Assembly: GCA_043822705.1 (NCBI GenBank)
Contig: JBDRBK010000059.1
Location: 1-17,470 of the forward strand
Reading direction: 5' to 3'
Origin: Fidelibacterota bacterium
Lineage (GTDB): Bacteria > Fidelibacterota > Marinisomatia > Marinisomatales > TCS56
Length of the DNA: 17,470 nt
The notes beneath the pieces are model-generated. The model was not told where the DNA came from and searched no databases. It saw nothing but the letters and a program-made list of their open reading frames with translations. Within the stretch, counting starts at the first letter, position 1. Each line of letters starts with the position of its first letter. This document shows, piece by piece, positions 1-17,470 of the stretch. A program made the translations under genes and the position numbers.

Positions 1-2457
1 CTGCTCGCGCCACTGGCGGAAGGGCTTGCCCGAATGGTCGGGAATCAGCGCCCCGGCCGCGTCGCGGAGAAAATTGCCATCGCCATCGATTCGGAACAAC
101 AGGCGGTCGCCGCTGGAATCGGAAATGTACTCCGATTTATAAGTCACAATCGTTTCGATCATCGAAATCGGGGCCGGGTCCAGCGGCGTCTCGGCCCGCC
201 CCAACTTGCCGACCACCGATTCCACTTCCGGCACCGAATAAAGCGCCATATCCAGTTTGCGCAATACATCGCTGGCCTCTTCTATCCCGGCGTGGGGCAT
301 GGTCGTCGGCATATACAAAAACGAGCCTTCGTCCAGGGGCGGCATGAACTCCTTGCCGATCCCCGGAAAAGTATGATTAAGCGACTGGTAGACCCGGTTC
401 GATTTCAGAATATCCGGCAGAAATCCCGTGAGATTATTAAAGCCCAGCCAGGCGGTGAAACCGACGACGATCAGGGCGCCGGGAACGGACAGGGCCGGTA
501 ATTTATGGTCCAGGGCCCAGCGCAGAATCCGTGGATAAGCGCGCGTGAACAGCATGATCGCCCCCATTACCAGTGTCAGCAATACCGCCACGAAACCGAT
601 ATTGATCCACCAGCTACGGTCATATCCGAGGGGTGCCCAGGTGGCCGCCAGAATACCGCCGACCAACAGGATCGCGGTGCCGTTCACCAGCCACGGCAGG
701 CGGGCTGTCCACGATTCGCGCAGATATTTCTTCATGAACGGAAACAGGCCAAATGCTACGATAATCACACCGATCCACCATTTCACCAGCAGAGCGGCGG
801 CAAGTCCGAGCAGCACGATAGCACCATTGATGAACTGCTTCAGGCGGCCTTCTTTCAGTTTACCGGCGTATAGAATATGCGCCAGGGGCGGCAATACCGT
901 CAGGGCGATGATCACCGAGGCGACCAGGGCGAAGGTTTTGGTATAGGCCAGCGGTTTGAACAGCTTGCCCTCCGCCGCTTCCATGGTGAATACCGGCAGA
1001 AAACTGACCACGGTGGTAGACACGGCCGTCAGAACGGCGCCGCCCACTTCCGAGGCCGCCCTGAACAGAACGGCCAGTTTATCCTCGTTTTCATCGGCGT
1101 TTTCGAGATGCCTGAGCATGTTTTCCGAGATGACGATGCCCATGTCCACGATCGTGCCGATGGCGATGGCGATACCGGACAGGGCGACGATATTGGCGTC
1201 GACGCCGAACATTTTCATGCCGACGAATACCATCAGCACCGTCAACGGCAACAGACCGGTAATCAGCAACGATGTTTTCAGGTGCATCACCATCAGCAGA
1301 ATTACGATGATGGTGATCAAAATTTCATCGCGCAGGGCATGGTTCAGCGTGCCCAGCGTCTCATAAATCAGTCCGGTCCGATCATAAAACGGCATGATCG
1401 TCACCTGCGATCGGCGACCGTCCGGCAGTGTTTTCACCGGCAGGCCGGGACTGATTTCAATGATTTTCTTTTTGATGTTCTTGATGCCGGCCAGTGGATT
1501 TTCGCCGTAGCGCACGACGGCCACGCCACCCACTGTTTCGGCCCCCTCCTTATCCAGCACGCCGCGCCGTAGGGCCGGACCCAGCACCACATTGGCCACA
1601 TCCTTGATATAAATCGGCACGTTGTCCACCGATTTGATGACGGTATATTCCACATCATCCAGCGACTTGATGAAGCCCAACCCACGGACGATGTACTCAA
1701 CACGGTTGACTTCCACCGTCCGGGCGCCCACGTCCAGGTTGGAATTACGGATTGCGTTGAATATTTCCGGCAACGTAATGCCATGCGCACGCATCGCCGC
1801 CGGATCCACGTCGATCTGGTATTCCTTGATATGTCCACCCACAGAGGCCACCTCGGCGATGCCGTCCACCGACTGCAAAGCATAACGCACGTACCAGTCC
1901 TGGATGGTGCGCAATTCCTGCAGGTCCCAACCACCGATGGGTTGACCCTGCTCGTCACGGCCTTCGAGGGTGTACCAGAAGACCTGCCCTAGAGCGGTGG
2001 CATCGGGACCGAGAGCCGGCTGCACGCCTGGTGGCAGCGTGCCGGAGGGCAGCGAATTCAGTTTTTCCAGAATCCGGCTGCGGGTCCAGTAAAATTCGGC
2101 CTGCTCCTTGAAAATGATATAAATCGTGGAGAAACCGAACATGGAATAACTGCGAATTGTTTTCACCTCGGGGATGCCCAGCAGGGCTACGGTCAGCGGG
2201 TAGGAAATCTGGTCTTCCACATCCTGCGGCGACCGTCCCATCCATTCAGTGAACACGATCTGCTGGTTTTCGCCGATATCGGGGATGGCATCCACCGGCA
2301 CCGGGTCGCGGGGAATGCTGGCGATATTCCAGTCGAAGGGTGCCACGATAACGCCCCAGCCGATCATCAGCAGCACCAGCAGCCCGACGATCAGCTTGTT
2401 TTCCAGGCAGTATTTGATTACCCTGTCCACAAAAGACAGCCGCTCGATGTCATTCAT
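1..2457 (-). CDS. cusA: CusA/SilA-family heavy-metal (Cu(I)/Ag(I)) efflux RND permease, first 819 codons; 3' end lies outside the window
   Basis: Absent from the ORF track because there is no stop in the window; translated by hand. ATG at 2457 overlaps the cusB stop (ATGAATGA) and the frame is open to position 1. Motifs: VDAIPDIGENQQIVFTEWMGRSPQDVEDQISYPL, LGPDATALGQVFWY, ELRTIQDWYVRYAL, TM4 ALSGIAIAIGTIVDMGIVISEN, AEGKLFKPLAYTKTFA, and the CusA-type Met motifs GKEFMPPLDEG and DPAPISMIET. Confidence 0.96.
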   Translation of the reverse strand, partial: MNDIERLSFVDRVIKYCLENKLIVGLLVLLMIGWGVIVAPFDWNIASIPRDPVPVDAIPDIGENQQIVFTEWMGRSPQDVEDQISYPLTVALLGIPEVKTIRSYSMFGFSTIYIIFKEQAEFYWTRSRILEKLNSLPSGTLPPGVQPALGPDATALGQVFWYTLEGRDEQGQPIGGWDLQELRTIQDWYVRYALQSVDGIAEVASVGGHIKEYQIDVDPAAMRAHGITLPEIFNAIRNSNLDVGARTVEVNRVEYIVRGLGFIKSLDDVEYTVIKSVDNVPIYIKDVANVVLGPALRRGVLDKEGAETVGGVAVVRYGENPLAGIKNIKKKIIEISPGLPVKTLPDGRRSQVTIMPFYDRTGLIYETLGTLNHALRDEILITIIVILLMVMHLKTSLLITGLLPLTVLMVFVGMKMFGVDANIVALSGIAIAIGTIVDMGIVISENMLRHLENADENEDKLAVLFRAASEVGGAVLTAVSTTVVSFLPVFTMEAAEGKLFKPLAYTKTFALVASVIIALTVLPPLAHILYAGKLKEGRLKQFINGAIVLLGLAAALLVKWWIGVIIVAFGLFPFMKKYLRESWTARLPWLVNGTAILLVGGILAATWAPLGYDRSWWINIGFVAVLLTLVMGAIMLFTRAYPRILRWALDHKLPALSVPGALIVVGFTAWLGFNNLTGFLPDILKSNRVYQSLNHTFPGIGKEFMPPLDEGSFLYMPTTMPHAGIEEASDVLRKLDMALYSVPEVESVVGKLGRAETPLDPAPISMIETIVTYKSEYISDSSGDRLLFRIDGDGNFLRDAAGALIPDHSGKPFRQWREQ

Positions 2458-4306
2458 GGCCGGCGTGCCCCGCACTGGTATTTCCCGGTTGCTTCAATTG
2501 ATTCATGACCGGATCGATTTGATCATGGGCGGTCTGGGCTTCGGCGATATTTGACCAGTGGGGTGCATGCTCGACCGCTTGTAGTAACTGTGGTTCCGCC
2601 TGTCGCCAACTGTGCAATTCCTCGTCGGATAGTCCGATAATATCGAACTTTTGCGCCATAAACCCAACGGCCGACAGCGCTTCCCGGGCACCGTTAAAAT
2701 CACTATTGCCAAGAGCCAATTTCGACATTGACAGGGCTTCATCAAGCGGTTCAAGTCGTTGCCGGAATCGGGGTTGCCCCTGAACTGGTACCGCAACACT
2801 CACGCCGTCATGTCCATGTGCGGCGGTACTGACCCCGCCAGCGGGATTCATCATGCTGGGCTTGGCGGCAATCTGCATGGCACTGTCGATCTTGAAATTG
2901 CCGTTGGTCACGACTTCCTCGCCTTCCTGAAGACCGGCCAAAACGATATAATATTCGCCGGCACGGGGACCAACGGTAATTTCACGACTGACGAAAGTCG
3001 GTTCGTCGCGGCCGGGAATCCTGATATATACCAGGGCGCGGCGGCCTGTTTTCAAGACGGCGGTGGCCGGCACTAATAGCGGCTGGGCGGCCGTGGCGGG
3101 ACGGTGTACAATACCAAGTTTTTCCGCCGGCACCAGGTCCATACCGCAGACATCGCACTGGCCGAACCCGTCCTTCACTACCTCCGGATGCATGGGGCAG
3201 ATCCATTTGCCGACCAGACTGGTGTTCACCGCCAGCCCGCGGGCATCCAGTTCGGCTTTGATGATTGCACGGATAAACAGGCCCGGTTTCAGTTTGCCGT
3301 CGGGATTGGCCAGGTTTATGCGCACCTTCACCGTACGGGTTTTGTTGTCCAGTACCGGATCGATGAAAGCCACCAGTCCGGCGAACACCTCGCCGGGCAA
3401 AGATTCGGTGGTGAATTCCACCTTCTGTCCGAACCGCAGCCAGGCCAAATCTTTTTCATAGGCGTCCAGCACGATCCAAATCCGGCTCAGATCGGCGATA
3501 GTATAGATCGGCGTGCCGGTATTGACATACATGCCCTCGATCGCGTTTTTGTGAATGACGACGCCGGAAATCGGACTGAAAATCGTCAGCCGGTCCTCGG
3601 GACTGCCGCGCTTTTCGATGGCGCCGATCTGCTGGGCGGTGAGTCCCAGCAGGGCCAGCTTTTCGCGGGCTGCGTCCAATGTCAGACGGGCCGATTCGCG
3701 GACCATTTCGGAACCGGCGGTTTCAGTCTGCTTCACGGACTGGATCAGTTCTTCCTGGGCGGCGTACAGCTCAGGGCTGTACAACTCCACCAGATGATCG
3801 CCGCGGGCAACACTGATGCCGGTGTAATCAACAAATAGATGCTCCAGCCGGCCCGGAACCCAGGCAGTGATTGATTTTACGCGGGTTTCGTCGTATTCGA
3901 CTTTGCCCGAAAGCAGAATATCCGCCGTGGCGACACCCCGCCTGACCGGCGTGGTGGCAATCTCGGCGATCCTGACAGCGGTTGCGGACAATTTCAGCTC
4001 ACCGGGACCTTCGGCGCTACCGCCGGTTCGCAGTGGAATCAAATCCATGAAACAGATCGGACACTGTCCTTTCGACGGCAGTTTGATCTGCGGGTGCATC
4101 GAGCAGGTCCACCATTCGATATTCCCGCTTGCCGACGCGGCTTCGGTGATGGTTGGATTGGTCGCTTCGGCCGCGCCGCCCCCTCGAATCAGCAATCCAG
4201 CTGCGAAAGCCAGCACCACGATGGCCCAGGCCAGGCGCGGTAACGCATTGATTTTAAGTCCGGTGGAATTCAATAAATTTTTCAGATTGAAACCGGTTGC
4301 GTTCAT
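2450..4306 (-). CDS. cusB: CusB-family RND periplasmic adaptor (membrane fusion protein) with two heavy-metal-binding CxMHP...CxxCxMDL domains and a His-rich tail
   Basis: 618-aa ORF with an N-terminal TM. Metal domains WTCSMHPQI...CPICFMDL and WICPMHPEV...CDVCGMDL. MFP core LYSPELYAAQEEL, IFSPISGVV, TIADLSRIW, KTRTVKVR, LKPGLF, GLQEGEEVVTNGNFKIDS. Lies between the OMF and cusA with overlapping start/stop codons on both sides. Confidence 0.94.
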   Translation of the reverse strand: MNATGFNLKNLLNSTGLKINALPRLAWAIVVLAFAAGLLIRGGGAAEATNPTITEAASASGNIEWWTCSMHPQIKLPSKGQCPICFMDLIPLRTGGSAEGPGELKLSATAVRIAEIATTPVRRGVATADILLSGKVEYDETRVKSITAWVPGRLEHLFVDYTGISVARGDHLVELYSPELYAAQEELIQSVKQTETAGSEMVRESARLTLDAAREKLALLGLTAQQIGAIEKRGSPEDRLTIFSPISGVVIHKNAIEGMYVNTGTPIYTIADLSRIWIVLDAYEKDLAWLRFGQKVEFTTESLPGEVFAGLVAFIDPVLDNKTRTVKVRINLANPDGKLKPGLFIRAIIKAELDARGLAVNTSLVGKWICPMHPEVVKDGFGQCDVCGMDLVPAEKLGIVHRPATAAQPLLVPATAVLKTGRRALVYIRIPGRDEPTFVSREITVGPRAGEYYIVLAGLQEGEEVVTNGNFKIDSAMQIAAKPSMMNPAGGVSTAAHGHDGVSVAVPVQGQPRFRQRLEPLDEALSMSKLALGNSDFNGAREALSAVGFMAQKFDIIGLSDEELHSWRQAEPQLLQAVEHAPHWSNIAEAQTAHDQIDPVMNQLKQPGNTSAGHAGHE

Positions 4307-5643
4307 AAGTCCCTCCCCGCCAGCAGTTCGAGTCTGGCTACTGCTTTTTGGCCGGCCACTAGCGATCGTTCATGCTCCAACAGAAATTGCAGATAGCGCC
4401 GCTGGGCGTCCACCAGGTTGAGAAAGTCAAGTTTATCGGCCACGTAGGCTTTTTCAGTGGCCCGCAGTGATTCCAGACTCTTGGGAATAAGTCCGTCTCC
4501 GTACAGAGCGATCTTGCGGCGGGCGTCCTCCAACTCGAACCAGGCCTGCTCCGCCTCGGCCCGTAACCGGTTTTCCAGGTCGATGTATCGTTCCTCGGTG
4601 GCGCGGTACTGGTAGCGGGCGGCGCTGACGGCGCTACGGTTTTTTTTGAACCACAGCGGCAGGCTGGCCGAAACCATTACCACCAAAGGGTCCTTGCCAC
4701 TGCCGGATGTACCGCTCATCAATTTTTCTCCGGTGACAATGTAATCCAGTCCCACGCCCAGATCGGGATAATAATTCAGGCGTGCCTTTTTTATATTATC
4801 CGCACTCGCCTGCCTGCTCAATTCGGCGATTCTGAATTCCGGGTTGCTTTCGAGAATAATCGCCACAATTTCCTCTTGGGACAATAATCGGCCGATGGCG
4901 TCAAGTGAATCCGGAACAATGATTTCAGTCAGATTTTTGTCGTTCAGCGCCAGCCGGAATTTTTCGATCAGCGGTGATTGCTGCGCTTCCAGAGTCTTCA
5001 GATTGTCTTCCAGTTTCAGCAGTTCAATCTGCGTGTTGATCAGATCGGGGTGGCCGGCGCGGGCGGTGGCGTATTTGCTCGTAACCACTTTCTCCCAGTT
5101 ACGCACCAGGGCGATATTCTGTTGCGTCAGGGTGATCGAGCGCTGCAGGAAATAATAATCCAGATAAATTTCGGTGACCCGGTATTTGAGCTGATAGACG
5201 GCGGTGTTGACTTGTTCTGCTGCGATCTCCGCAGTCCGGGTCTGCAGTTGCCCGGCCAGACGCAGTTTTCCGAACCATGGCAGCATCTGGTTCAGACTGA
5301 TTTTAAGTTCCTGTGGACCGACGGCGGTCTCGATATTTTCCAGGAAATAACCCAGACTGGCAGTCGGATTTGGCAGTCCGCGGGCCACGGCAATCGAATT
5401 GACTTCCGCCTGCCAACGAGCCCAGGCGCTTTTTACAGCGGGATTATTGTGTGCTGCCGTCGTTAGATAATCGGCCAGGGTGGGATGTTCGGCCAGCGGC
5501 GCTGCTGGACTGTCGGTAAACCCGGTCTGCACCTGGTCCGCGCGCCACTGGTGTTCGCCGTCGGCACCGTTGACGGGATTGATCAGAACCGCCAGGACCG
5601 GCAACAGCAGCCATTTAAATATTTCAATCGGTGGATTGGTCAA
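4303..5643 (-). CDS. TolC/CusC-type outer-membrane efflux factor (446 aa from TTG 5643)
   Basis: OEP-type motifs AAHNNPAVKSA, LNQMLPWFGK, ARLNYYPDL, SLPLWFKKN, DFLNLVDAQR. The ORF track starts at 5748. TTG at 5643 is preferred: it has AAGGAG 7 nt upstream and is followed by a signal-like segment (KWLLLPVLAVLINPVNG). The stop overlaps the cusB ATG (ATGA). Confidence 0.9.
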   Translation of the reverse strand: MTNPPIEIFKWLLLPVLAVLINPVNGADGEHQWRADQVQTGFTDSPAAPLAEHPTLADYLTTAAHNNPAVKSAWARWQAEVNSIAVARGLPNPTASLGYFLENIETAVGPQELKISLNQMLPWFGKLRLAGQLQTRTAEIAAEQVNTAVYQLKYRVTEIYLDYYFLQRSITLTQQNIALVRNWEKVVTSKYATARAGHPDLINTQIELLKLEDNLKTLEAQQSPLIEKFRLALNDKNLTEIIVPDSLDAIGRLLSQEEIVAIILESNPEFRIAELSRQASADNIKKARLNYYPDLGVGLDYIVTGEKLMSGTSGSGKDPLVVMVSASLPLWFKKNRSAVSAARYQYRATEERYIDLENRLRAEAEQAWFELEDARRKIALYGDGLIPKSLESLRATEKAYVADKLDFLNLVDAQRRYLQFLLEHERSLVAGQKAVARLELLAGRDL

Positions 5644-5761
5644 ATCAGAACTCCTTGTTTTGATTAATAATACAGACAAACCCCGCACTGTCTTTCCCGG
5701 ACAACCGGACGTACAAGCGGGAAGCGGGCGCATGGCCCGTGCAATCAAGGAGTATCTAGAT
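5644..5761 (-). promoter_or_regulatory. Structured intercistronic RNA: anti-SD arm pairing with the RBS of the OMF gene
   Basis: mRNA 5' arm ATC-T-AGA-T-ACTCCTTG (5761-5746, includes the TAG stop of the upstream ORF) is complementary to 3' arm CAAGGAGTTCTGAT (5657-5644, SD plus spacer). This is 8 perfect bp, extending to 14 bp with two 1-nt bulges. Inner hairpins: CGGGC/GCCCG, CCCGC/GCGGG and CCGG-TTGT-CCGG. Confidence 0.7.
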
Positions 5762-6112
5762 CAGTAGTGGCAGCGGGTGGGCCGGAGGCGGCTCCGGGTC
5801 AACAGCCGGATTCATTTCCGGTCGATGGGAAAGCTGTTCGGATAAACGGATAACTGGAAACAGTGCAACGGCAATGATAGTCTGCTCTATCCTCTGTTCC
5901 ACCTTATTTAACGGCGCGACCACCAGTGTCAATAAAACCGGTGTATTGCAGGCCGCCAGGCTCGATTCGCATGTCACTACATTTGCCGCCATGCAGCAGC
6001 TTAATTCAGTGCGGCAGCAGGGCATGTTGCAATTGTCGAATTGCACCAGCGACAGCACCGGCGAACTCAGCAACAGCAACGTGGTAATGATGGATGTTAT
6101 CCTGTTCAGCAT
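5756..6112 (-). CDS. Small exported Cys-rich protein with C-terminal polyproline; CutF/CruR(DUF2946)-like regulatory upstream ORF of the cus operon
   Basis: 118 aa with an N-terminal signal-like segment. Seven Cys in residues 28-55 (CNMPCC, SCCM). C-terminus DPEPPPAHPLPLLI. First gene after a terminator and directly upstream of a Cu efflux operon. The CDS is well supported; the function is inferred. Confidence 0.7.
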   Translation of the reverse strand: MLNRITSIITTLLLLSSPVLSLVQFDNCNMPCCRTELSCCMAANVVTCESSLAACNTPVLLTLVVAPLNKVEQRIEQTIIAVALFPVIRLSEQLSHRPEMNPAVDPEPPPAHPLPLLI

Positions 6113-6160
6113 TTATTCAATTAGTATAATGCAAACTTACAAAAGTTCCCTCATACATGA
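6113..6160 (-). promoter_or_regulatory. Candidate promoter region of the cus unit
   Basis: AT-rich gap between the terminator and ATG 6112. Minus-strand TATACT (-10-like) at 6128-6123 lies 10 nt before the ATG, and TAAGTTTG (matches the Bacteroidota -7 element TAnnTTTG) is at 6139-6132. No convincing -35/-33 element and no SD. Confidence 0.3.
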
Positions 6161-6178
6161 TATTTTGATTTTCCCGGT

Positions 6179-6217
6179 AAAAAGAAATCCCCCGACCCTG
6201 CGCAGACCGGGGGATTC
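6179..6217 (-). terminator. Rho-independent terminator downstream of the OmcE-like gene
   Basis: Minus strand GAATCCCCCGGTCTGCGCAGGGTCGGGGGATTTCTTTTT: 9-bp perfect stem AATCCCCCG/CGGGGGATT followed by a U-rich tract, 20 nt after the stop at 6238. Confidence 0.88.
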
Positions 6218-6237
6218 GAATGTTACTTGATCGACTG

Positions 6238-6846
6238 CTATTTATTGTGGCAAGTCAGGCAGAGAGCACTGGCATCGTTGGCCATAACCAGAAACGAACC
6301 GCTGCCGTTGTCATGTACATCGTGGCAGGAAGAACACTCCAATTTATGATCGGCCAGCAGGTCGGCGTCGATAGTGCTGCCGAGTCCGGAGTTAACCGTG
6401 GTCGGAGCATACAGCCCGCCATCACTGGTGGCCAGAGCATCATCGTAGGTAAATGAGATCGGGTGATCATCACTGATGCTGGTGCCGATTTCATTGGCAC
6501 TGCTGATGTCCGTAGTACCGGTCGTGACACTGCCGAAATTATCAACCGCCACCGTTCCATCGTGACAGCTAAGGCAGAGTTTCGAAGAGCCGCTGGGTTG
6601 CCCCATGCTGGCATCAACAGAGAATGAGCTGTACAGTGTGTAGGTGGAAGATGTAACCTGGTGATTCCACAGCGGAGCGCCGGTGACATTTGTATTGGCG
6701 TTATGTGGAGTATGGCAGACGATACAGATTTCACCGGACGAATTCCAGCTGCTGGCACTGAAGTCGTGGGCCGAGCCGGCTATTTGCCCAAACACCATTG
6801 TACTTGCTATTATCAGAACAGTTAAAACACCTAATAGTCGCGACAT
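6238..6846 (-). CDS. omcE: OmcE-like secreted tetraheme cytochrome c (candidate extracellular cytochrome nanowire subunit)
   Basis: 202 aa with a Sec signal and four CxxCH (CIVCH, CLSCH, CSSCH, CLTCH). Motif order AHDFS / ICIVCHTPHNA / PLWN / YTLYSS / LCLSCHDG / GTSISDDHPISF / LECSSCHDVHDN / FL..LCLTCHNK-stop. This is collinear with G. sulfurreducens OmcE as I recall it (KHDLS / ICVFCHTPHNA / PLWNR / FTLYSS / CMSCHDG / GTDLSNDHPVNF / LECGSCHKVHDN / LCLGCHKK). RBS-like AAAGGG 7 nt upstream. Confidence 0.9.
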   Translation of the reverse strand: MSRLLGVLTVLIIASTMVFGQIAGSAHDFSASSWNSSGEICIVCHTPHNANTNVTGAPLWNHQVTSSTYTLYSSFSVDASMGQPSGSSKLCLSCHDGTVAVDNFGSVTTGTTDISSANEIGTSISDDHPISFTYDDALATSDGGLYAPTTVNSGLGSTIDADLLADHKLECSSCHDVHDNGSGSFLVMANDASALCLTCHNK

Positions 6847-6891
6847 GTCGATACCCTTTAATTATCGTATTGAATATATCCAGTACCATAG

Positions 6892-6907
6892 TACAAGAAC
6901 TATACCA
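6892..6907 (-). promoter_or_regulatory. Candidate sigma54 (-24/-12) promoter for the OmcE-like gene
   Basis: Minus strand TGGTATAGTTCTTGTA versus consensus TGGCAC-N5-TTGCW. GG-N10 spacing is correct, but -12 is GT instead of GC. Lies 45 nt upstream of ATG 6846 and just downstream of a sigma54 activator gene. Confidence 0.55.
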
Positions 6908-7012
6908 CTCAAGGTAAAGTCAGCTAATTAGTTACTGATTTTCACGATTGTGGCCATGAGCCGACGGAGTCGGGACAGTAGTCTCCTGAAATTATCGGCT
7001 AAAACAGCGCTT

Positions 7013-7030
7013 ATTGATCATTTAATCAAT
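7013..7030. promoter_or_regulatory. Dyad ATTGAT-N6-ATCAAT, candidate activator/enhancer site
   Basis: Perfect 6-bp inverted repeat about 105-125 bp upstream of the candidate -24 element, a typical enhancer distance for sigma54 activators. Confidence 0.3.
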
Positions 7031-7039
7031 GCTGGTAGT

Positions 7040-7071
7040 GGATTATCCCCCAGAATACTGCGGAATAATCC
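7040..7071. repeat. Inverted repeat GGATTAT...ATAATCC just after the response-regulator stop (hairpin or operator)
   Basis: Minus strand GGATTATTCCGCAG-TATT-CTGGGGGATAATCC forms a ~13-bp stem with one mismatch. No U-tract follows, so it is not a canonical intrinsic terminator. Confidence 0.5.
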
Positions 7072-7075
7072 CCAA

Positions 7076-8449
7076 TCAAGTCAAATTGTATTTTTTCATT
7101 TTATATCTGATCTGGTCGCGGGTCAGGCCCAGCAGACGAGCGGCACGCGATTGATTATTGTTCTCGCGCTGGAGTGCCCAGGCTACAATTTCATTTTCAA
7201 TTTCCGACCAGGTTTTACCCTTGAAATATTCATCCAGGATCGCGTGATCAACCACCGGGGCTCCGTTGCGGAAATGATTTTGGATGTGTTGCGGCAGATG
7301 CCAGACCGAAATCCGCTCCGGTTTTTCCAGCAGGAAAATCCGTTCCAGAGTATTTTTCAATTCCCGGATATTCCCCGGCCAGTCATACCGGTTCAGCATA
7401 TCTTGGGCGGCCTTGTCGATTCCGGTCACGTGCAGATTCAATTCCGAATTGAAGCGCTCAATGAATTTGCTGGTCAAATCCGAAACATCCTCCAGGCGTT
7501 CGCGCAGCGGCGGAATCGTCAACGAAATCACATTCAGACGGAAATACAAATCTTCGCGAAACGTTCCCGATTCCATCTCCTGGCGCAAGTCGCGATTGGT
7601 CGATGCGATAATCCTGACATTGACCTTCAATTCACGTACGCCGCCGACCCGGTAAAAAGACTGGGTCTCGATAAAACGTAGCAATTTGGCCTGAAAACCG
7701 ATCGGGATTTCACCGATCTCGTCCAGGTAAACAGAACCGCCGTCGGCCAGCTCGATCTGACCATGCTTCCGCGCCTTGGCATCGGTAAAGGCGCCTTTTT
7801 CATAACCAAACAGTTCACTTTCCAGCAGGTGCTCCGACAGCGAGGCGCAATTGACGATCACGAATGGTTTGTTCTGACGCAGCCCGTGTTCATGAACCAG
7901 GCGTGCCAGCATATCTTTCCCGGTACCGGTCTCTCCCAGAAGCAGGATGGTACCGGTATCGGTCTGTCGTAATTTACGGATCGTGCTCATTACTTCGCGC
8001 ATCCGAGGGGAGTGACTGACATAACTTCCCAGGCGAATTTCCTGGTCGCCGCGATGCTCAAGGATGCTGATTTTCTGGCTTTTCTCCCGCTCCTTGAAGG
8101 CCATTTCGATCAAAACCGTAACTTCGTCGAAGTTGACCGGTTTGTTCAGGTAGCGAAATGCCCCCAGACGCATAGCCTCCACCGCCACCTTATCGGTACC
8201 ATAGGCGGTCATGAAAAAAAATACCGTTTCGTTCCGGATACCCTGCAATTCCCGCAGGATATCGATACCATTCATGTCCGGCAAACGAAAATCCACAAAT
8301 AATACGTCCGGCGGATCCTGCAGGGCATGCGTCACGCCCTGGCCGCCATATTCGGTGATTGTTATTTCAAACCCAATTTTCTTCAAGTGTTCCTGGAGCG
8401 ACCAGGACACCAATTTTTCATCCTCGATTATCAAGGCGCGCAGATTCAT
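7076..8449 (-). CDS. NtrC/AtoC-family sigma54-dependent response regulator (REC, AAA+, Fis-type HTH)
   Basis: 457 aa. REC (IIEDE, VDFRLPDMNG, MTAYG, LNKP), Walker A GETGTGKD, ESELFGYEKGAFTDA, Walker B YLDEIGE, FREDLYFRLNV, WPGNIRELKN, HTH NQSRAARLLGLTR. Confidence 0.97.
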   Translation of the reverse strand: MNLRALIIEDEKLVSWSLQEHLKKIGFEITITEYGGQGVTHALQDPPDVLFVDFRLPDMNGIDILRELQGIRNETVFFFMTAYGTDKVAVEAMRLGAFRYLNKPVNFDEVTVLIEMAFKEREKSQKISILEHRGDQEIRLGSYVSHSPRMREVMSTIRKLRQTDTGTILLLGETGTGKDMLARLVHEHGLRQNKPFVIVNCASLSEHLLESELFGYEKGAFTDAKARKHGQIELADGGSVYLDEIGEIPIGFQAKLLRFIETQSFYRVGGVRELKVNVRIIASTNRDLRQEMESGTFREDLYFRLNVISLTIPPLRERLEDVSDLTSKFIERFNSELNLHVTGIDKAAQDMLNRYDWPGNIRELKNTLERIFLLEKPERISVWHLPQHIQNHFRNGAPVVDHAILDEYFKGKTWSEIENEIVAWALQRENNNQSRAARLLGLTRDQIRYKMKKYNLT

Positions 8450-8450
8450 T

Positions 8451-9965
8451 TTAATTTTCCTTCAAAGGACGGATCGGCAGCTCCACCGTAAAACAGGTTG
8501 ACCATTTCCAGTCATTGCTGTCGACAAGAATTCGACCGCCGTGGCTTTCAACGATCGCGAGTGACAGTGACAAACCCAGGCCTGTTCCTTTATGTTTGGT
8601 AGTAAAAAATGGTTTGAATATCTGTTGGCGGTTTTCCGTCGGTATCCAGCTGCCAGTGTTCTTGAATGAGATACGCACGATATCTGCAACAGAGTCGAAT
8701 TCGGTACCGATATCGATCCGGGGATTACGTGTTCCGCTGGTCGCCTGATAAGCATTCAACAGCAAATTGACAAAGACCTGCTTGAGTTGCTCGGGATCGC
8801 CTTCGATGGTCAATCCGCCGGTCAGAAAATTCTCCCTCAACTCAATTCCATCGCTAGCAATCTGCTGCCGGTGCAGACTGATTATCTGGTCCAGCGTCTG
8901 TTCCAGGTCCAGAGCCCGAAAATGTGGTTTCGAAGGTTTGGCGAAATCCATCAAATCCTGGACCGTTTTCAGCACGCGGTCAGCCTGTGATACCATTTCG
9001 GCGACAATTACCTCCCATTGCTCATTAAAAATGTGATTCTGGCGGCCCTTGAAAATTTCCAGCGCATTCCTTATCCCGGAAACCGGGTTCTTGATCTCGT
9101 GCGCCACGCTGGCAGCCAGCTCACCGATGCTGGCCAGTTGTCCGGCGCGATTGATCTGCCGGTGATGCAATTCATCGATTTCTGACCGATTCTGTTCCAG
9201 CTTGGCGGTCATGTTATTGATGGCACCGGCTAATCGCGACAGTTCCCCGCGGGTTCGCAGATCGATTCGCGTCGACAGATCCCCCGCTTCGATCCGCGCG
9301 ATCCCGGCCTGAATCCGGTATAACGGTTTTTGAAATACCTGCTGATGCAGCAGGCTGATTACCAGCGTTATCAATATCAGGAACAGGGAGTAAACCGCAA
9401 AATCCAATTTCAGAAATGTGGCCTGCGTACCGGCGCCGACCGCATTGGTCAGATCGATCGCCAGGTATCCCAGATGCGTCTGCACGGCTTCGTGACAGGC
9501 ATGGCAGTCGGGCTCGTTGACGATGCTGGTAAGCATGCGGATATCGGCGGACGATTCGGCCGGTAATCTGAAAATCCTGTGATCACTAACCGGGATACCA
9601 GCATCTATCATCTCCCGGTTGTCGATCAATTGGCCCAATTCCGTATTATCGTTACTGAATTTGATAACCTGATTCCCATCCAGCACGCGGATATGCCGAA
9701 TCTCCTCGGACACTTTGATATCCGCCAGCAGCGACTGGCAATGCCGGGCCGAATGATTGCGCATATCATGACGAATCTGGGCATCGATCAGGGACTCCAA
9801 TGGTTTTAACAGCTCCAGCCGGTATTCACGAAACATGTCGCCACGGATTTTATAAACCGCCAGCATGGCACCACTGCCGGCAATAAATACCGAAAACAGA
9901 ACCATCACGATCAGTTTATCGCGCCAGCGCAATTTTCTCAGCAGGGGTATCCCGGCAATTTTCAT
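8451..9965 (-). CDS. Membrane sensor histidine kinase with periplasmic heme c-binding domain, HAMP, HisKA and HATPase
   Basis: 504 aa. Two TMs flank a periplasmic domain containing IVNEPDCHACH. HAMP (GDLSTRI..GELSRLAGAINNM), H-box VAHEIKNPV, N-box QVFVNLLLNA, FKPFFTTK, GTGLGLS. Confidence 0.95.
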   Translation of the reverse strand: MKIAGIPLLRKLRWRDKLIVMVLFSVFIAGSGAMLAVYKIRGDMFREYRLELLKPLESLIDAQIRHDMRNHSARHCQSLLADIKVSEEIRHIRVLDGNQVIKFSNDNTELGQLIDNREMIDAGIPVSDHRIFRLPAESSADIRMLTSIVNEPDCHACHEAVQTHLGYLAIDLTNAVGAGTQATFLKLDFAVYSLFLILITLVISLLHQQVFQKPLYRIQAGIARIEAGDLSTRIDLRTRGELSRLAGAINNMTAKLEQNRSEIDELHHRQINRAGQLASIGELAASVAHEIKNPVSGIRNALEIFKGRQNHIFNEQWEVIVAEMVSQADRVLKTVQDLMDFAKPSKPHFRALDLEQTLDQIISLHRQQIASDGIELRENFLTGGLTIEGDPEQLKQVFVNLLLNAYQATSGTRNPRIDIGTEFDSVADIVRISFKNTGSWIPTENRQQIFKPFFTTKHKGTGLGLSLSLAIVESHGGRILVDSNDWKWSTCFTVELPIRPLKEN

Positions 9966-9969
9966 CTAA

Positions 9970-10929
9970 TCAGGGCAGAAATGTCGGCGCCAGTTTACTG
10001 GCGGCCTGTTCGGAAGATTGACGGTATTCCCGGGCGGCTTCTTCAGTCCGGCCCAGTGCTTCCATAATGCGCCCCCGCCAGTAATGAATCCGGTACATTT
10101 CCGGCAGGGCGTGTATGCCGTACAAATATTTTTCCGCCACTTCGATTTCGCCCCGGTTGAAGGCAATCAGACCCAGCCCCAGTTGGCCGTACTGGGCGCC
10201 GTTTGGATCGTCCAACAGATGCTGAAAAATCTCCTCGGCGGCACTGAAATCTTCCAGTTTGAGATAAATGAAACCCTTTAAAACCTGGCCTTTCACCGAC
10301 AGTGAATCCAATCCATCGAGCTGCCCCAGGGCCAGTTGGTAGCGAAAACGATAATATAATTTCCGGGCCAGCGATTCCTTGCGCAGGCGTTGTTTTTCAG
10401 CGGCTGCAAAAGCTACTTCCACTTCCGGGGGAAATAATTCCGGGAAAAATACCGCCAGCTCGGAATTCAACCCGCTGGCCGTCGCCGGCGTATAGCCGGG
10501 TAGATAACTGGCCAGACGACGGTCCGGCCCCAGCACAAAGATTGTCGGCAGGACCCGGACCCCGAATGTGTCGTACCAATGGTGGTCCGGATCGCCGATC
10601 CGATACCAGGCAGCGGCACGGTCCGTCTTAGCCGACGATCCGGTGACCACCTGGATAATGAAAATCCGATCGCGCAACGGTTTGGTCAGGACCGCTTTCA
10701 GGTCGCCTTCGATCCGGTCTGATAAACGCTGGTCGGCGCGGGTAAACACCAGCAGCAGGACGGCGTCGGGGGCCGGTGACTTGACAGCGTCGCTCAACAG
10801 TGACTGCAACAGGGTATCCGGAAGCGCCTCCCCGATACTCCAGACCCGGCCGGCGGTCGCCTTATCCTGAGCCCCTGCCAGTCCGCCGACGATCAGCAAG
10901 ACCAGCAGCAGTCTGATTCTAGCGGACAT
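9970..10929 (-). CDS. Exported thioredoxin-like-fold (no CxxC) plus TPR protein (319 aa from ATG 10929)
   Basis: The ORF track starts at 11130, inside the upstream cytochrome gene. ATG 10929 overlaps that gene's stop and gives a clean signal peptide (MSARIRLLLVLLIVGGLAGA-QD). The N-half is redoxin-like (IGEALPD, LLLVF, FGVRVLPTIFVLGPD). The C-half has TPR-like repeats (KGFIYLKLEDFSAAEEIF, LGLIAFNRGEIEVA, YWRGRIMEALGRTEEA). Confidence 0.75.
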   Translation of the reverse strand: MSARIRLLLVLLIVGGLAGAQDKATAGRVWSIGEALPDTLLQSLLSDAVKSPAPDAVLLLVFTRADQRLSDRIEGDLKAVLTKPLRDRIFIIQVVTGSSAKTDRAAAWYRIGDPDHHWYDTFGVRVLPTIFVLGPDRRLASYLPGYTPATASGLNSELAVFFPELFPPEVEVAFAAAEKQRLRKESLARKLYYRFRYQLALGQLDGLDSLSVKGQVLKGFIYLKLEDFSAAEEIFQHLLDDPNGAQYGQLGLGLIAFNRGEIEVAEKYLYGIHALPEMYRIHYWRGRIMEALGRTEEAAREYRQSSEQAASKLAPTFLP

Positions 10930-12214
10930 ATTCTTCGTATTTGTGGCACCCCGGCAGACAGGTGCCACCGTTGCTGGTGGCTTTGAAATTAATCGGTAAT
11001 TCCCAACTGCCGAAAGGCACTGCTGTCCGAATATGGTAAGGCTGGTTCGAGGCGTGCGTCTCATGACAGGCACGGCAGGTCCGGCCCTTGGTCCGGTTGA
11101 CATGCAGGAAATGCATGTTGTTCTGGCCATCGCGGAAATTGGTCATGGTGGTCGTCAGCGGGTCCTGCAGGTTTTCCGGTGGGTGACATTCGATACACAA
11201 CTGGTACTTCTCGAAATCGAATTCGCTGTAGAATTCCTTGGGATAATAATGCCGCAACAGCCGAAAATTGCCGGAACCGTGCGGTTCGTGGCAGCCGCTG
11301 CAGTCGCGGTCCTTGATCGGCCCGTGCCAGTTCTTGCTGCCTTTCAGCAGTTCATCGATCCCGGGGACCGCTATCTTGCCCCGCTTGACCGCCTGATCGT
11401 GACAACTCAGGCAGAGATCGAACGAATTGGATCTCAGGTTCCAACTGAAATTCGAACCGTGTGAATTGTGGCAGTTGTAGCAGGATAACTGGTCCTCGAC
11501 GGCTTCATGATGCGAATCGGCGCCGGCGATGATTCCCTGAATGTTGCCATGACATTCGAAACAGAGTTCCGGTGTGGTGGAAAGCAATTGAAACCGGTAA
11601 GCGCTGCTGTGGGGATCGTGGCAGCCGGAACAGGATTCGGCCACCGGCGCGTGAATATTGGCCAGCGCATTGATTTCCTCCTTTTTCATTTCATGGCAAT
11701 CATAACAGGCGGCGTTGACGCCATCGAATTTGAGCAGCCCCTGCCCCAGTTTTCCATGACTGGAATGGCAGACATCGCAGGCTCCCACGGCCACCGGTCC
11801 ATGGATGTATTTGTCCCCGGTCCCACCGGTATCGTGGCACTGATTACAGACTTCCCCGGCGGTCGCTCCTTTCAACATATCGGCCTGATCGCCCTGATGC
11901 GGATCGTGGCAGGCGGTACATTCGCCTTCGGCCACCGGCGGATGCTGATCGGCCTCGTCCAGGGGAGCATCGTGGCAGCCGGTACACAATTCGGCCACGG
12001 TACCGGCCAGGACCATTTCACTGCCTTTGCCGCCCGGATGTTTCTTCTTATCCTGCACGTGACAGACTCCGCAATCGCGCTCCTCTACCGGCAGGTGGGT
12101 TACTTTTTTCTGGAATAATTCCGCGTGGCAGCCGCCGGTTACGCAGTCCTGGGACCACAAACCGGCACTGAAAAAAATCAGCAGGACCGCCAGTCGCTGG
12201 GCAGTTTTATGCAT
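10919..12214 (-). CDS. Periplasmic multiheme cytochrome c with doubled-CxxCH repeats; 13 CxxCH + CX4CH + CX3CH (15 hemes possible), 431 aa
   Basis: Start moved from 12274 to ATG 12214 (GGGGA upstream, signal MHKTAQRLAVLLIFFSAGLWS-QD). Repeating unit HxPVxxGxCxxCHxxH...LCxxCH. Motifs counted by hand. Confidence 0.93.
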   Translation of the reverse strand: MHKTAQRLAVLLIFFSAGLWSQDCVTGGCHAELFQKKVTHLPVEERDCGVCHVQDKKKHPGGKGSEMVLAGTVAELCTGCHDAPLDEADQHPPVAEGECTACHDPHQGDQADMLKGATAGEVCNQCHDTGGTGDKYIHGPVAVGACDVCHSSHGKLGQGLLKFDGVNAACYDCHEMKKEEINALANIHAPVAESCSGCHDPHSSAYRFQLLSTTPELCFECHGNIQGIIAGADSHHEAVEDQLSCYNCHNSHGSNFSWNLRSNSFDLCLSCHDQAVKRGKIAVPGIDELLKGSKNWHGPIKDRDCSGCHEPHGSGNFRLLRHYYPKEFYSEFDFEKYQLCIECHPPENLQDPLTTTMTNFRDGQNNMHFLHVNRTKGRTCRACHETHASNQPYHIRTAVPFGSWELPINFKATSNGGTCLPGCHKYEEYVR

Positions 12215-12240
12215 TGGTTTCCCCGTAATTGAATTAAGCA

Positions 12241-13872
12241 CTAATGGATTTCTCCGTGACAGGTCAGGTAACATCTTAATTTTCTTGGATTGGCATCATC
12301 GAATAGGATCTGGCCGCCGCTACCGGCAGTGACATAATCCGGATTGAAATTTATCAACCGGGAATTATTGTATGATCCGTGGGGATCATGACAAGTCGTG
12401 CAACTGGTCTGGTTAGTCTCAACATGCAGCCGGTGCCGGATAAAACTCTGGTTCCCCAAAATACTGTTCCGGTCATGGCACCGATAGCACAATTCATAAA
12501 TCGTGGCGCTCTCAATATTATAGTCGTCAAATACCATCTGGCCCGCCAGCAGCGGTGCATAGTTGGAACCGTGAGGGCCGGCCGGTCCGGTGCCGACTCC
12601 GGCCTCGTCATTGCCATGACAATCACTACAGTAGATCAGGGAGTTCTCGGTGTAGGGTGTGATAAGGCTGGGACAACTGGAATTTTTTCCGGCCCCGAAA
12701 ACCGGATGGTAGGACGGATTGGTTTCGGCATATTCCAGACGGATACTGTTCTGGGCATCGACGCGCGCTACGTAAGTCGGAATCGACGGGATTACCGTGG
12801 CGTGACATTTCAGGCACACCTCATATTCATAAGTGACCGTAGTAACGGTGTTGCCGTTTTTATCGATACCGCCGACACCGGTCAAACACCCGGGGACATC
12901 CGGCGGCGTGGCGACGGTGGAATTGGCCTGGTGCGGGGCGTGGCAATCGCTGCATTCGACATGCAGCGACATGGTGGCCGGATCCTCACCCGGCAGGTGA
13001 ATCGAATTATAATCCGCCACCGGATGAGTCGATGATTTCAGCAGGGTCGCCTGGACATTTTTCGCGGCCACATTTCCGTTGTGGCAGACCAGGCAATTAT
13101 CCTCTTCGGCACTGGATTTCAACAGCCAGTAGGTGCTGGAGGCGCCGTGGGAAGTATGACAGTTATTACAACCGTTGGCCGCAACCGTGGTCCAGTCTGT
13201 ATACGGCCAGGGGTCGGGCAATGAACTGTTCCAGGTGGCGCTGGAAGTGTTGTGAATAGCGGCGCTCCAGCCGGTCTGAACGTGACATTGCAGACAGATG
13301 CCGCCATTGAGCGGGTCGACTTTTAGGAAGTGACCGTAGGTGTTATCATGGGCGTCGTGGCAGGAAGTGCATTCCAGGTTGCTGGTGGTGCCGGACTGGC
13401 TGTCATGACAACCGGTACAGGTATATCCGTCGGGATGGGTATCGATATTCAGGGGATGGTCGTCACCCAGATCATCGGAAAGGTTGCTGCGGTAGGTGAC
13501 AGGAATCTTATCGAAACCGACCGGGAAGGCGATCGGGTCGACCCGGTTCAGGACCGATCCCAGGGCGACTGTCCCGTCGTGGCAACTGAGACAGAGCCGG
13601 GATGTCGTCAGCGGCTGCTGGGTGCTGGCATCCATGGAAGGGCTGCCATACAATGTATAAGTAGCTGTGTTGTCGGAACGGTTCCACAACGGCGCCGTGG
13701 CCGAGCTGTTATGGGTGGTGTGGCAGAAAATACAGATACCGGTCTCGCTGGTGGCCTTGATCGCACCGGTTCCCAGCACCGACAGATTGTGTTTGGATGT
13801 AGCGATACTGCCCTGCCCCCAGAGCAGGGTCGCCGTTCCCAGGGCCAGCAGTCCGGTAATAATTCTATTCAT
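12241..13872 (-). CDS. Secreted multiheme cytochrome c with N-terminal OmcE-like module; 12 CxxCH + C-terminal CX3CH (13 hemes possible)
   Basis: 543 aa, signal peptide ending LLWG-Q. Motifs CIFCH, CLSCH, CTGCH, CTSCH, CLQCH, CNNCH, CLVCH, CSDCH, CLKCH, CSDCH, CYRCH, CTTCH, CYLTCH. The first ~195 aa align by eye with the 202-aa tetraheme. Confidence 0.93.
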   Translation of the reverse strand: MNRIITGLLALGTATLLWGQGSIATSKHNLSVLGTGAIKATSETGICIFCHTTHNSSATAPLWNRSDNTATYTLYGSPSMDASTQQPLTTSRLCLSCHDGTVALGSVLNRVDPIAFPVGFDKIPVTYRSNLSDDLGDDHPLNIDTHPDGYTCTGCHDSQSGTTSNLECTSCHDAHDNTYGHFLKVDPLNGGICLQCHVQTGWSAAIHNTSSATWNSSLPDPWPYTDWTTVAANGCNNCHTSHGASSTYWLLKSSAEEDNCLVCHNGNVAAKNVQATLLKSSTHPVADYNSIHLPGEDPATMSLHVECSDCHAPHQANSTVATPPDVPGCLTGVGGIDKNGNTVTTVTYEYEVCLKCHATVIPSIPTYVARVDAQNSIRLEYAETNPSYHPVFGAGKNSSCPSLITPYTENSLIYCSDCHGNDEAGVGTGPAGPHGSNYAPLLAGQMVFDDYNIESATIYELCYRCHDRNSILGNQSFIRHRLHVETNQTSCTTCHDPHGSYNNSRLINFNPDYVTAGSGGQILFDDANPRKLRCYLTCHGEIH

Positions 13873-14833
13873 ATAATTTCCGGAAAACCTGGATTCGGTT
13901 GTTCATCGTATCGGACACATAAATCAGGTCGCCATCGATGGCGATATCGGTTGGCATGTAAAACTGTCCCTGACCGCTGCCGGTGGCGCCGAAATGCATC
14001 AGGAAACTTCCGTCCGCAGCAAAAATCTGCACATTATCAAAACTGTTGTCGACAACATACAAACGCCGGGCTCCATCCACGGCCACCCCCTTGGGACGAT
14101 TTAACTGTCCGCCGCTCACGCCGGCAGCGCCGATGGTTGCCAGCCAGGTGCCAGCGGGACTGAAATTCTGGACCCGGAAATTCATGGTGTCGGAAATATA
14201 GATCGACCCGTCCGCTCCGACGGTGACAAAAGTCGGGTAATTCAGTGAACCCGCCGCCTGACCGCGGCCGCTGATCAGCCGCTTAACGACGCCGTTCGCC
14301 TGCCGGCGCAACACCTGGTGCCCCGGCGTATCGACCAGATACAGACCGCTGCCGGAACCGGCAATCCCGGTAAGCCGCTGGGCGTCGGCCGACAGATCGA
14401 GCCGGCCCCGATAATCACCGCCATAATCGAACACGAATGGATTTTGCGCCAGCGACGAGGTAACGAAAATCCGGTCTTCACTCAGACAGACATCCAGCGG
14501 CGCGAACAGGTGACTGACACCCGCCGCCGGCTCCAGGAAGACGGTGGTGCCGGCTTGCAGATTAATCAGGAACACACCCCCGGCACCGGGATCAGCAACT
14601 GCCAGATAGCCGTCACGAGCATCCACTCCCATCGGGCGCGCGAACTCACTCCTGACCGGCGGCCGGATCAGGTTCGTCAGGCGCTGCCACCAGTTCCGGT
14701 CGGCGTTAATCGCCGGCGGCTCAGCCAACACACGCTCGAGGACGATCCGCGTCGTATCCGGTGGGCGCGGCCAGAGCACCTGCTGGGCAGCTACCAGGTT
14801 GACCAGGATACAGCCGATCAGCGCGATCATCAT
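13865..14833 (-). CDS. Exported NHL-repeat beta-propeller protein (about 322 aa)
   Basis: NHL repeats LNYPTFVTVGADGSIYISDTMNFRVQNF, LNRPKGVAVDGARRLYVVDNSFDNVQIF, FYMPTDIAIDGDLIYVSDTMNNRIQVF; N-terminal LWPRPPDTTRI. Start placed at the ATGA overlap with the barrel gene stop (14833). ATG 14860 is an alternative; 14962 from the ORF track is unlikely. Confidence 0.9.
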   Translation of the reverse strand: MMIALIGCILVNLVAAQQVLWPRPPDTTRIVLERVLAEPPAINADRNWWQRLTNLIRPPVRSEFARPMGVDARDGYLAVADPGAGGVFLINLQAGTTVFLEPAAGVSHLFAPLDVCLSEDRIFVTSSLAQNPFVFDYGGDYRGRLDLSADAQRLTGIAGSGSGLYLVDTPGHQVLRRQANGVVKRLISGRGQAAGSLNYPTFVTVGADGSIYISDTMNFRVQNFSPAGTWLATIGAAGVSGGQLNRPKGVAVDGARRLYVVDNSFDNVQIFAADGSFLMHFGATGSGQGQFYMPTDIAIDGDLIYVSDTMNNRIQVFRKLYE

Positions 14834-17384: not shown

Positions 17385-17470
17385 TGTGCCGCCGGCTCCC
17401 CACGCCGGTGGATACGTCCGTAAATGCCGATTTTGTCGGGTCCGTACTGATTGGTCACGATTATGATATA
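17381..17470 (-). CDS. 3' end of an upstream gene, probably a second NHL-repeat/beta-propeller protein (partial)
   Basis: Open frame YIIIVTNQYGPDKIGIYGRIHRRGEPAAQ-stop whose TGA overlaps ATG 17384 (ATGA). IVTNQYG..KIGIYG resembles a final NHL blade (IYVxD...RIQVF pattern). Only 29 residues are visible. Confidence 0.55.
   Translation of the reverse strand, partial: YIIIVTNQYGPDKIGIYGRIHRRGEPAAQ

Follow-up and report, generated by a model that had tools for sequence, protein, structure and literature searches.

The small protein CutF of Rhodobacter capsulatus is exported by the Sec system and carries a CxxxC motif and a proline-rich C-terminus (Ozturk et al., mBio 2023, PMC9973294). As described in that paper, CutF has its effect in cis only and depends on being translated itself, and it is responsive to metal. 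Its section 11 reports 5,334 CutF-like proteins, whose commonest downstream neighbour is the OEP of RND pumps, and its section 12 takes unfolding to be an unlikely mechanism where the gap is about 100 nt or longer. Here we analysed 17,470 nucleotides from a Fidelibacterota bacterium (contig JBDRBK010000059.1, positions 1 to 17,470), hereafter the window, in which an open reading frame (ORF) of 118 codons, ORF118, is followed after a gap by the gene of an outer-membrane factor (OMF). The gap is predicted to be closed by a long-range RNA helix, P1, that joins the ORF118 stop codon and the bases after it to the Shine-Dalgarno (SD) sequence and start codon of the OMF gene, and that is conserved with covariation in related loci. 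On balance, and with some reserve, we favor the interpretation that the gap is a translational gate opened at the end of ORF118, and that ORF118 is a metal-sensing protein of the CutF kind.

In SecM-secA, MifM-yidC2, and VemP-secDF2, an exported small protein carries a C-terminal arrest motif, and the stalled ribosome melts a helix that sequesters an SD. CruR (Bp2923) of Bordetella pertussis, a DUF2946 protein, is reported to act through Rho-dependent transcription termination with a RAPP motif; copper relieves the arrest, and the signal peptide is dispensable (Roy et al., mBio 2022, PMC9426467). In coupling by RNA unfolding, described for rpmI-rplT (+52 nt) and for MS2 coat-lysis, upstream translation opens a paired downstream ribosome-binding site (PMC12548453).

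CutF/cutO of R. capsulatus (PMC9973294) is the published system closest to the ORF118-gap-OMF arrangement. Both have a small ORF heading a metal-homeostasis operon and a next-gene SD shielded by RNA structure, here by computational and comparative evidence. ORF118 resembles CutF in its hydrophobic N-terminus, its cysteine motif, and its conserved, proline-containing C-terminus. Compared with the rules for CutF-like proteins given in section 10 of that paper, ORF118 is shorter than 150 aa (118 aa); it ends in PEPPPAHPLPLLI, which agrees with the C-terminal rule, and PP or PPP occurs in 77 of 109 family members; an OEP gene lies 112 nt downstream, the next gene being OMF-like in 67 of 109 loci; and, as regards the signal peptide, its N-terminus is hydrophobic with a predicted helix at residues 2-22. 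The ORF118 family may already be within list D of the CutF authors. On the other hand, ORF118 gives no match to DUF2946 and has the cysteine pattern CxxxCC...CC...C...C; in addition, the CutF structure is a local stem-loop, whereas a long-range helix closes a gap of about 65-125 nt here, with its 5' arm on the stop codon.

Predicted helix P1 in the window

ORF118 lies on the minus strand (5756..6112; 118 codons and a TAG stop codon at 5756..5758), and the OMF gene follows on the same strand (4303..5643; 446 aa, TTG start, OEP PF02321 with E 1.8e-46), leaving 112 nt between stop and start. A preliminary description of the window had claimed that the two ends of this gap are complementary, and their complementarity is readily seen both in the sequence and in the minimum free energy (MFE) fold. 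The TAG (5758-5756) is followed by AU and then by ACUCCUUG at 5753-5746, so that the core of the helix begins 2 nt past the stop codon. This core is the exact 8-bp complement of CAAGGAGU at 5657-5650, which holds the SD of the OMF gene, AAGGAG (5656-5651), 7 nt ahead of the TTG (5643-5641).

The MFE fold of 5800-5630 contains P1 extended to 15 bp, with GAUC.AGA.ACUCCUUG paired to CAAGGAGU UCU GAUU. The stem had been described as 14 bp with two bulges; the two bulges, each of a single base, were found again, whereas the length was one pair greater. The 5' arm, or anti-SD arm (5746..5762), extends from the core through the stop codon to G5762, and the A and G of the TAG are paired within it. The 3' arm (5643..5657) consists of CAAGGAGU followed by UCU and GAUU, and ends on the first U of the start codon.

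Three hairpins are predicted inside the loop closed by P1. Hairpin 1 (5725..5739; 5 bp with a loop of 5) has a counterpart at the same place, as the first hairpin, in most relatives. Hairpin 2 (5681..5722) has a two-part stem and is a diverged form at the site where relatives carry a hairpin with the motif GGAUYCGU. Hairpin 3 (5659..5680) is weak and A/U-rich, belonging to the MFE fold only and being reduced in the centroid. Hairpins 1 and 2 are G+C-rich, which agrees with the earlier view that GC-rich hairpins in the interior bring the arms together.

The stem had also been expected to sequester the SD, and the mean unpaired probability of positions -14..-5 was indeed 0.022 for the free RNA of the window. 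The TTG at 5643 was retained as the OMF start: it has an SD and is followed by a hydrophobic N-terminus, and the genes of the closest relatives (L004 and L005) also begin with TTG after AGGAG. The host uses SD sequences, as its SD-type 4-mers peak about ten-fold at -14..-9. As for the alternative pairing once suggested between TTGATT (5747-5742) and AATCAA (5664-5659), both sequences are present, but the comparison of loci gave it no support.

Conservation and covariation of P1 in related loci

ORF118 homologues were found in 41 of 61 related genomes by a search with the protein, and in 106 of 307 genomes of the class, representing 16 of its 21 families, by a profile built from 26 members. We assembled 110 ORF118 loci; the end of the ORF lies on the locus in 109, which is the denominator used throughout. 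In a duplex test, 18 nt from the stop codon were taken and their best partner was sought in the next 170 nt. A locus was counted as positive when the partner ended at -8..+6 nt relative to the start codon of an ORF with 100 aa or more. By this test 79 loci were positive, comprising 54 of the 67 with an OMF-like next gene and 25 with other next genes, and by our tally they span 13-14 of the 16 families having an ORF118 gene.

When partners were swapped between loci, which is the unbiased form of the test, the mean rose from -13.01 kcal/mol with the own partner to -9.74 ± 0.21 kcal/mol, and the observed mean was not reached in any of 10000 permutations. The difference was maintained after removal of similar arms (50 loci kept; -13.10 versus -10.01 ± 0.32 kcal/mol, 0/10000). 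A permutation of the arms only (-13.0 versus -6.83) was run on the 79 loci selected for the helix and is therefore descriptive only. Windows of 18 nt at eight other offsets gave -9.5 to -10.8, and offset 0 alone gave -13.0.

The arms vary widely in sequence yet change together: an 11-base arm, for example, is different in each of L019, L024, L027, L011, and L014, and is matched in each by its own partner. The covariation was also examined on an unfitted MAFFT alignment of 23 gaps, picked by eye for shared interior hairpins from 49 distinct OMF-type gaps, 4 of the 23 being out of register. On this alignment, 74.7% of the cells of a ten-pair helix were paired, compared with 63.6 ± 1.8 after shuffling (0/500) and 37-52% when the partner was slid, and compensatory changes on both sides occurred in seven of the ten pairs. 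P1 was contained in the MFE fold of 74 of the 79 gaps. According to sequence comparison and folding, the helix, its covariation, and its placement over the stop codon at one end and the SD and start codon at the other are features of these loci, and the conservation of P1 with covariation exceeds chance.

RNAalifold gave no consensus on the MAFFT alignments of 23 gaps or of 22 hairpin windows because the loops differ in length, and gave one only for sets of seven and five close sequences. Of two covariance models, the first recovered 12 loci on the right strand and the second about 14-17 (E up to 1), each of them spanning stop-6 to start+6; the models also matched the reverse strand of some seeds, and were therefore excluded from the counts.

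We also looked for conserved pairing of the arms with the interior of the gap. No such alternative was seen for the 5' arm (own -6.86 versus -6.73 permuted, with 1251 of 5000 permutations as low). For the SD arm, the own interior (-7.25) was a weaker partner than permuted interiors (-7.86), so that SD arms, if anything, avoid their own interior. A conserved anti-anti-SD pairing was rejected on these permutations.

Position of P1 and of the ribosome

In the 79 loci, pairing of the 5' arm begins at -2..+5 relative to the last base of the stop codon and ends at +6..+15, +15 being the farthest position that the duplex test covered. The last paired base of the 3' arm is mostly at -4..0 from the start codon. 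P1 has a median length of 11 bp and the gap a median of 99 nt. Since the arms end on the stop and start codons, these two codons would stand side by side at the base of the helix; in the consensus fold of one subgroup, the U and A of the stop codon are even paired with the G and U of AUG.

The effect of a ribosome on P1 was modelled by partition-function folding with positions -12..+15 around the P site forced to be unpaired. Placing the P site four codons upstream of the last codon gave an SD unpaired probability of 0.03 in the window, and a ribosome holding the stop codon in its A site gave 0.596. Folding with and without a footprint had been recommended in the preliminary description; in the folds that we ran, the SD opened only with the stop codon in the A site.

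ORF118 protein family

ORF118 had been treated as a short leader, a "uORF"; we found that it belongs to a conserved family of proteins of the CutF kind. Its parts are an N-terminal hydrophobic helix, a cysteine cluster (C28, C32, C33, C40, C48, and C55), a variable linker, and the C-terminal PEPPPAHPLPLLI. The family has a median length of 118 aa (range 100-127) and shares a hydrophobic N-terminal segment, nearly invariant cysteines, a poorly conserved linker, and a C-terminus of the form PEPPPxFxxPLLI. AlphaFold with an alignment predicted a helix only at residues 2-22; the remainder had low predicted local distance difference test (pLDDT) scores and formed no folded domain.

The C-terminus follows the last cysteine at a ruler-like distance, with a median of 62 residues (interquartile range 61-63, n=103) despite the non-conserved linker. 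The last four residues, P-L-[LR]-[ILV], are kept, and all four proline and six leucine codons are in use there; this synonymous variation indicates that selection acts on the peptide. The stop codons of the family were TAG in 65, TAA in 43, and TGA in one of the 109 members, whereas among 54 other ORFs of 200 aa or more from these loci the counts were TAA 24, TGA 20, and TAG 10 (Fisher p ~2e-10, uncorrected for kinship). The long ORFs of this genome end in TGA (634), TAA (603), and TAG (245). TGA is thus avoided and TAG preferred in the family, for which release-factor specificity or avoidance of read-through could be the cause. The fixed cysteine spacing, the kept C-terminus, and the scarcity of TGA would suit a nascent chain whose cysteine cluster has already crossed the membrane at the time the ribosome reads the chain.

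ORF118 had no match in Pfam (E up to 0.01) or NCBIfam. A search of PDB sequences with the family profile returned nothing (best E 0.67), and a protein cluster atlas gave unnamed clusters only, the nearest named families, DUF6769 and DUF8199, being leads only. Among 1.84 billion representative proteins, the profile found 110 clusters; their named entries are "hypothetical protein", and the source organisms are labelled Marinimicrobia or Fidelibacterota. One contig of genome G025 carries two copies of the family 2.5 kb apart (L096 and L097) with the same helix arms, and the OMF-like ORF after the second copy has only 127 aa and is possibly disrupted.

Genes that follow P1

Apart from OMF-like genes, the genes found behind the helix encode an HMA protein (L007 and L074), a CusB-like adaptor (L006), CcmF (L025 and L081), and a CxxC protein of about 130 aa. 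In the loci with the helix and a non-OMF next gene, the gap is shorter (65-78 nt) and holds one hairpin. The next gene varies while the helix stays, and therefore the gate would belong to ORF118 and not to the pump.

In L025 and L081, the gated gene is that of CcmF, a cytochrome c assembly protein (PF01578 and PF16327) and not a metal exporter. The CxxC proteins, of about 128-158 aa, have a hydrophobic N-terminus and a conserved CxxC of the GLVCSFC type, behind a gap of 65-78 nt with one hairpin (L020, L021, L023, L037, L039, L040, L043, L049, L050, L056, L058, L059, L061, L065, L066, L068, L077, and L105). Four of these proteins were scanned against Pfam and gave no match (E up to 0.001). In L017, L033, and L053, the shielded SD is followed by a mini-ORF of 5-6 codons that ends 4-9 nt before the ATG of the OMF gene, and this mini-ORF could be a relay of the coupling. 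The complementarity of the 5' arm is lost in L033.

Other features of the window

On the minus strand, the order is a terminator-like hairpin, ORF118, the 112-nt gap, the OMF gene, an adaptor gene, and an RND transporter gene. The terminator-like hairpin with its T-run (6185..6217) lies 3' of an upstream cytochrome gene and ahead of ORF118, which therefore probably heads its own transcription unit. The CusB-like periplasmic adaptor (membrane fusion protein, MFP; 2450..4306) is long, with 618 aa, and contains two stretches of the 28-residue heavy-metal-binding domain PF19335 (HMBD). The gene of the RND inner-membrane transporter (ACR_tran; 1..2475) is open at the end of the window. The overlapping start and stop codons that had been noted downstream were located as follows: the ATG of the adaptor overlaps the OMF stop codon in ATGA at 4306-4303, and the RND gene has an in-frame ATG at 2457, 5 nt ahead of the adaptor stop codon and overlapping the last codons of the adaptor.

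Upstream of the operon are genes for a sigma-54 response regulator, a histidine kinase, and multihaem cytochromes. A candidate sigma-54 promoter upstream of ORF118 was rejected by eye, as its spacing was wrong. Two antisense ORFs of 95 codons (5480-5767, plus strand) and 60 codons (5485-5667, plus strand) overlap both the gap and the beginning of the OMF gene; nothing supports them, and the conservation around the gap and OMF start reads on the minus strand and not on theirs.

Proposed mechanism and its weighing

In the mechanism that we propose, the 112-nt gap would act as a translational gate. In P1, the SD and start codon of the OMF gene would be paired with the ORF118 stop codon and roughly the next 10-15 nt, while the interior hairpins hold both arms close. 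With the SD and start held in P1, free 30S subunits could not initiate on the OMF gene, and its translation would be off by default. On reaching the end of ORF118, at its last codons or its stop codon, a ribosome would cover and unwind the 5' arm, and the SD, about 100 nt downstream, would then be freed in spatial proximity to the terminating ribosome. The OMF gene would be translated, followed by the adaptor and RND genes through their overlapping stop and start codons. At termination, the C-terminal motif of ORF118 would sit in the exit tunnel with the cysteine cluster already exported. As ORF118 is built like the nascent-chain metal sensor CutF, the dwell of the ribosome at its end is probably set by metal binding to the exported cysteine cluster. 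It is by analogy that we infer the dependence on ORF118 translation in vivo, the prolonged dwell or arrest, and the metal control with its sign.

A more specific form of this mechanism is conceivable, and we advance it tentatively, as one in which we have limited confidence. ORF118 would be a termination-stage arrest peptide, in which xPPxFxxPL[LR][ILV] together with UAG or UAA slows release, the cysteine cluster about 62 residues from the peptidyl-transferase center reports periplasmic metal, and the ribosome parked at the stop codon opens P1.

Several observations weigh against the proposed gate. The energy of P1 in this single sequence is unremarkable, and the case rests on conservation and covariation across loci: the fold of the window has z = -1.69, with 11 of 200 shuffles equally stable, and when the same duplex test was applied to the ends of ORFs of at least 200 aa in the same genome (n=2980), 612 of them (20.5%) reached -15 kcal/mol or lower. 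Thirty of the 109 loci fail the automated criterion, of which three pass a looser rule and 27 do not. Six of the 79 positive loci pair with distal starts across a gap of more than 140 nt; for most of them, folds or inspection by eye show a helix that reaches the proximal SD. The loci are related to one another, so that the permutation figures overstate independence. In a crude average over the 79 loci, the opening of the SD is modest, from 0.25 to 0.43 at the stop position, with no shift for upstream positions. As for the relation to known sensors, PP is missing from the last 15 residues in 32 of the 109 members; the DUF2946 (PF11162) hidden Markov model matched none of 26 members (E up to 10), none of 51 remote relatives (E up to 1), and nothing in this genome (E up to 10); and the RAPP motif occurs in none of the 109 family C-termini.

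Alternative explanations

One alternative is plain coupling by RNA unfolding, as in rpmI-rplT, in which ORF118 would be an ordinary exported metal-binding protein and there would be neither arrest nor metal-dependent dwell. We regard this as possible, though doubtful. All of the RNA evidence, namely the fold, the conservation, the covariation, and the footprint, fits it equally well, and the unfolding across +52 nt reported for rpmI-rplT is a precedent (PMC12548453). The likeness is close in that the downstream ribosome-binding site is paired with the sequence covered by the ribosome finishing ORF118. However, the ORF118 loci have a longer spacing, with the median of 99 nt, and an anti-SD arm that comes wholly after the stop codon; moreover, the stop codon stands next to the start codon and, in one subgroup, pairs with it. 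Furthermore, the partner gene is interchangeable, contrary to what coupling for a fixed stoichiometry would lead one to expect. Under plain coupling, another explanation would be needed for the 62-residue spacing, the four invariant C-terminal residues, and the scarcity of TGA, and AlphaFold shows no folded domain in ORF118.

It is improbable that the gap is instead a riboswitch-type RNA that binds a ligand or protein and whose interior hairpins set the stability of P1 independently of ORF118 translation. This idea draws on the motif GGAUYCGU, which forms the 5' strand of the second interior hairpin in 27 of the 67 OMF-type loci, at +35..+42 after the stop codon, is paired in 22 of 22 windows, and has a background of 0.02 per 130 nt. 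However, the motif occurs in only one of the 42 loci with other next genes, which keep P1 around one small hairpin. In addition, a scan of 5400-7100 against Rfam release 15 returned only two chance snoRNA matches (E 1.5 and 7.6), far under the gathering scores, and the conserved arm-interior alternative pairing that was sought above was not found. The fixing of the 5' arm to the stop codon would moreover be unneeded in a pure riboswitch.

The opening of P1 by a ribosome stalled on polyproline codons, as in CutF with relief by elongation factor P (EF-P), had been considered in the preliminary description, together with the caveat that termination rather than PPP stalling might open the stem. 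CutF stalling is reported to depend on PPP and EF-P (bioRxiv 10.1101/2025.02.05.636593), PPP is present in ORF118 of the window, and in 31 of the 109 members it stands exactly 8 residues ahead of the stop codon. Nevertheless, PPP stalling as the opener is very improbable and was not borne out by the folds. The first paired base of the 5' arm is about 28 nt or more past the P site of a ribosome stalled on PPP, and the modelled footprint with the second proline in the P site left the SD at 0.022. Across the family, PPP is present in 32 members, PP alone in 45, and neither in 32; PPP is therefore missing in 77 of the 109 members, whereas the helix is found in 79 of the 109 loci. Since PPP occurs in only 32 members, stalling on it cannot be the general opener. 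The caveat is favored by the value of 0.596 at the stop codon and by the sparse PPP, and in the model a ribosome at the last codon or stop codon can be the general opener, which is the better reading. In this respect the locus differs from CutF, because its geometry suggests a ribosome standing at the stop codon and not on PPP, with which most ORF118 members dispense.

Finally, it is scarcely credible that the complementarity is due to chance or to a structure with another role, such as mRNA stability or a processing site, with the OMF gene expressed from a promoter inside the gap. In its favor, P1 has an energy ordinary for the genome, and one sigma-70-like match (9/12) lies in the gap, at 5694-5667 on the minus strand and 3' of the 5' arm. 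Against it, a single such match equals the shuffle expectation (mean 0.9), and covariation and positional conservation across 13-14 families would be unexpected by chance.

Comparison with other nascent-chain systems

Like SecM, MifM, and VemP, ORF118 would be an exported small protein, and its conserved C-terminal 12-mer, its 62-residue spacing, and its avoidance of TGA are indirect signs of arrest. The targets of those systems, however, are Sec and YidC export factors, whereas the genes next to ORF118 encode OEP, HMA, adaptor, CcmF, and CxxC proteins; their stall sites also lie within the ORF, and their stem-loops are local.

With CruR as described in PMC9426467, ORF118 shares its position as an upstream ORF at the head of a metal-related operon, a cysteine motif, a conserved C-terminal arrest-like motif, and a conserved spacing between the motifs. 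It differs in having no RAPP, the motif by which that paper defines the DUF2946 family, and the conserved element here is the helix that shields the SD. The word "covariation" does not occur in the CutF paper (PMC9973294), in which we found no comparative RNA analysis. Nor did we find one in the CruR paper, and among 13 of the 16 papers that mention DUF2946 no title or abstract pointed to a comparative RNA study.

Significance

The system of ORF118 and P1 is a lineage variant of the published CutF-type regulation, with new details. The natural covariation across about 80 loci points to the SD-shielding helix as a selected element downstream of a CutF-type sensor ORF. The predicted structure suggests how a gap of about 100 nt may be bridged, by an anti-SD arm placed on the stop codon and by hairpins that close the loop, despite the doubt of the CutF authors over long gaps. 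A family without annotation in Pfam, from genomes of the Marinimicrobia/Fidelibacterota type, would thereby join this regulatory class, and such an ORF with its gap should not be annotated as a normal gene followed by a spacer. The position of the stop codon, UAG versus UGA, the 62-residue spacer, and the last four residues are features that can be tested.

If the termination-stage arrest should prove true, ORF118 would represent a second family of transmembrane nascent-chain metal sensors, one that is unrelated in sequence to the first and acts at termination and not at polyproline. In that case, one interchangeable sensor cassette could switch on any metal gene that follows it across a gap of about 100 nt.

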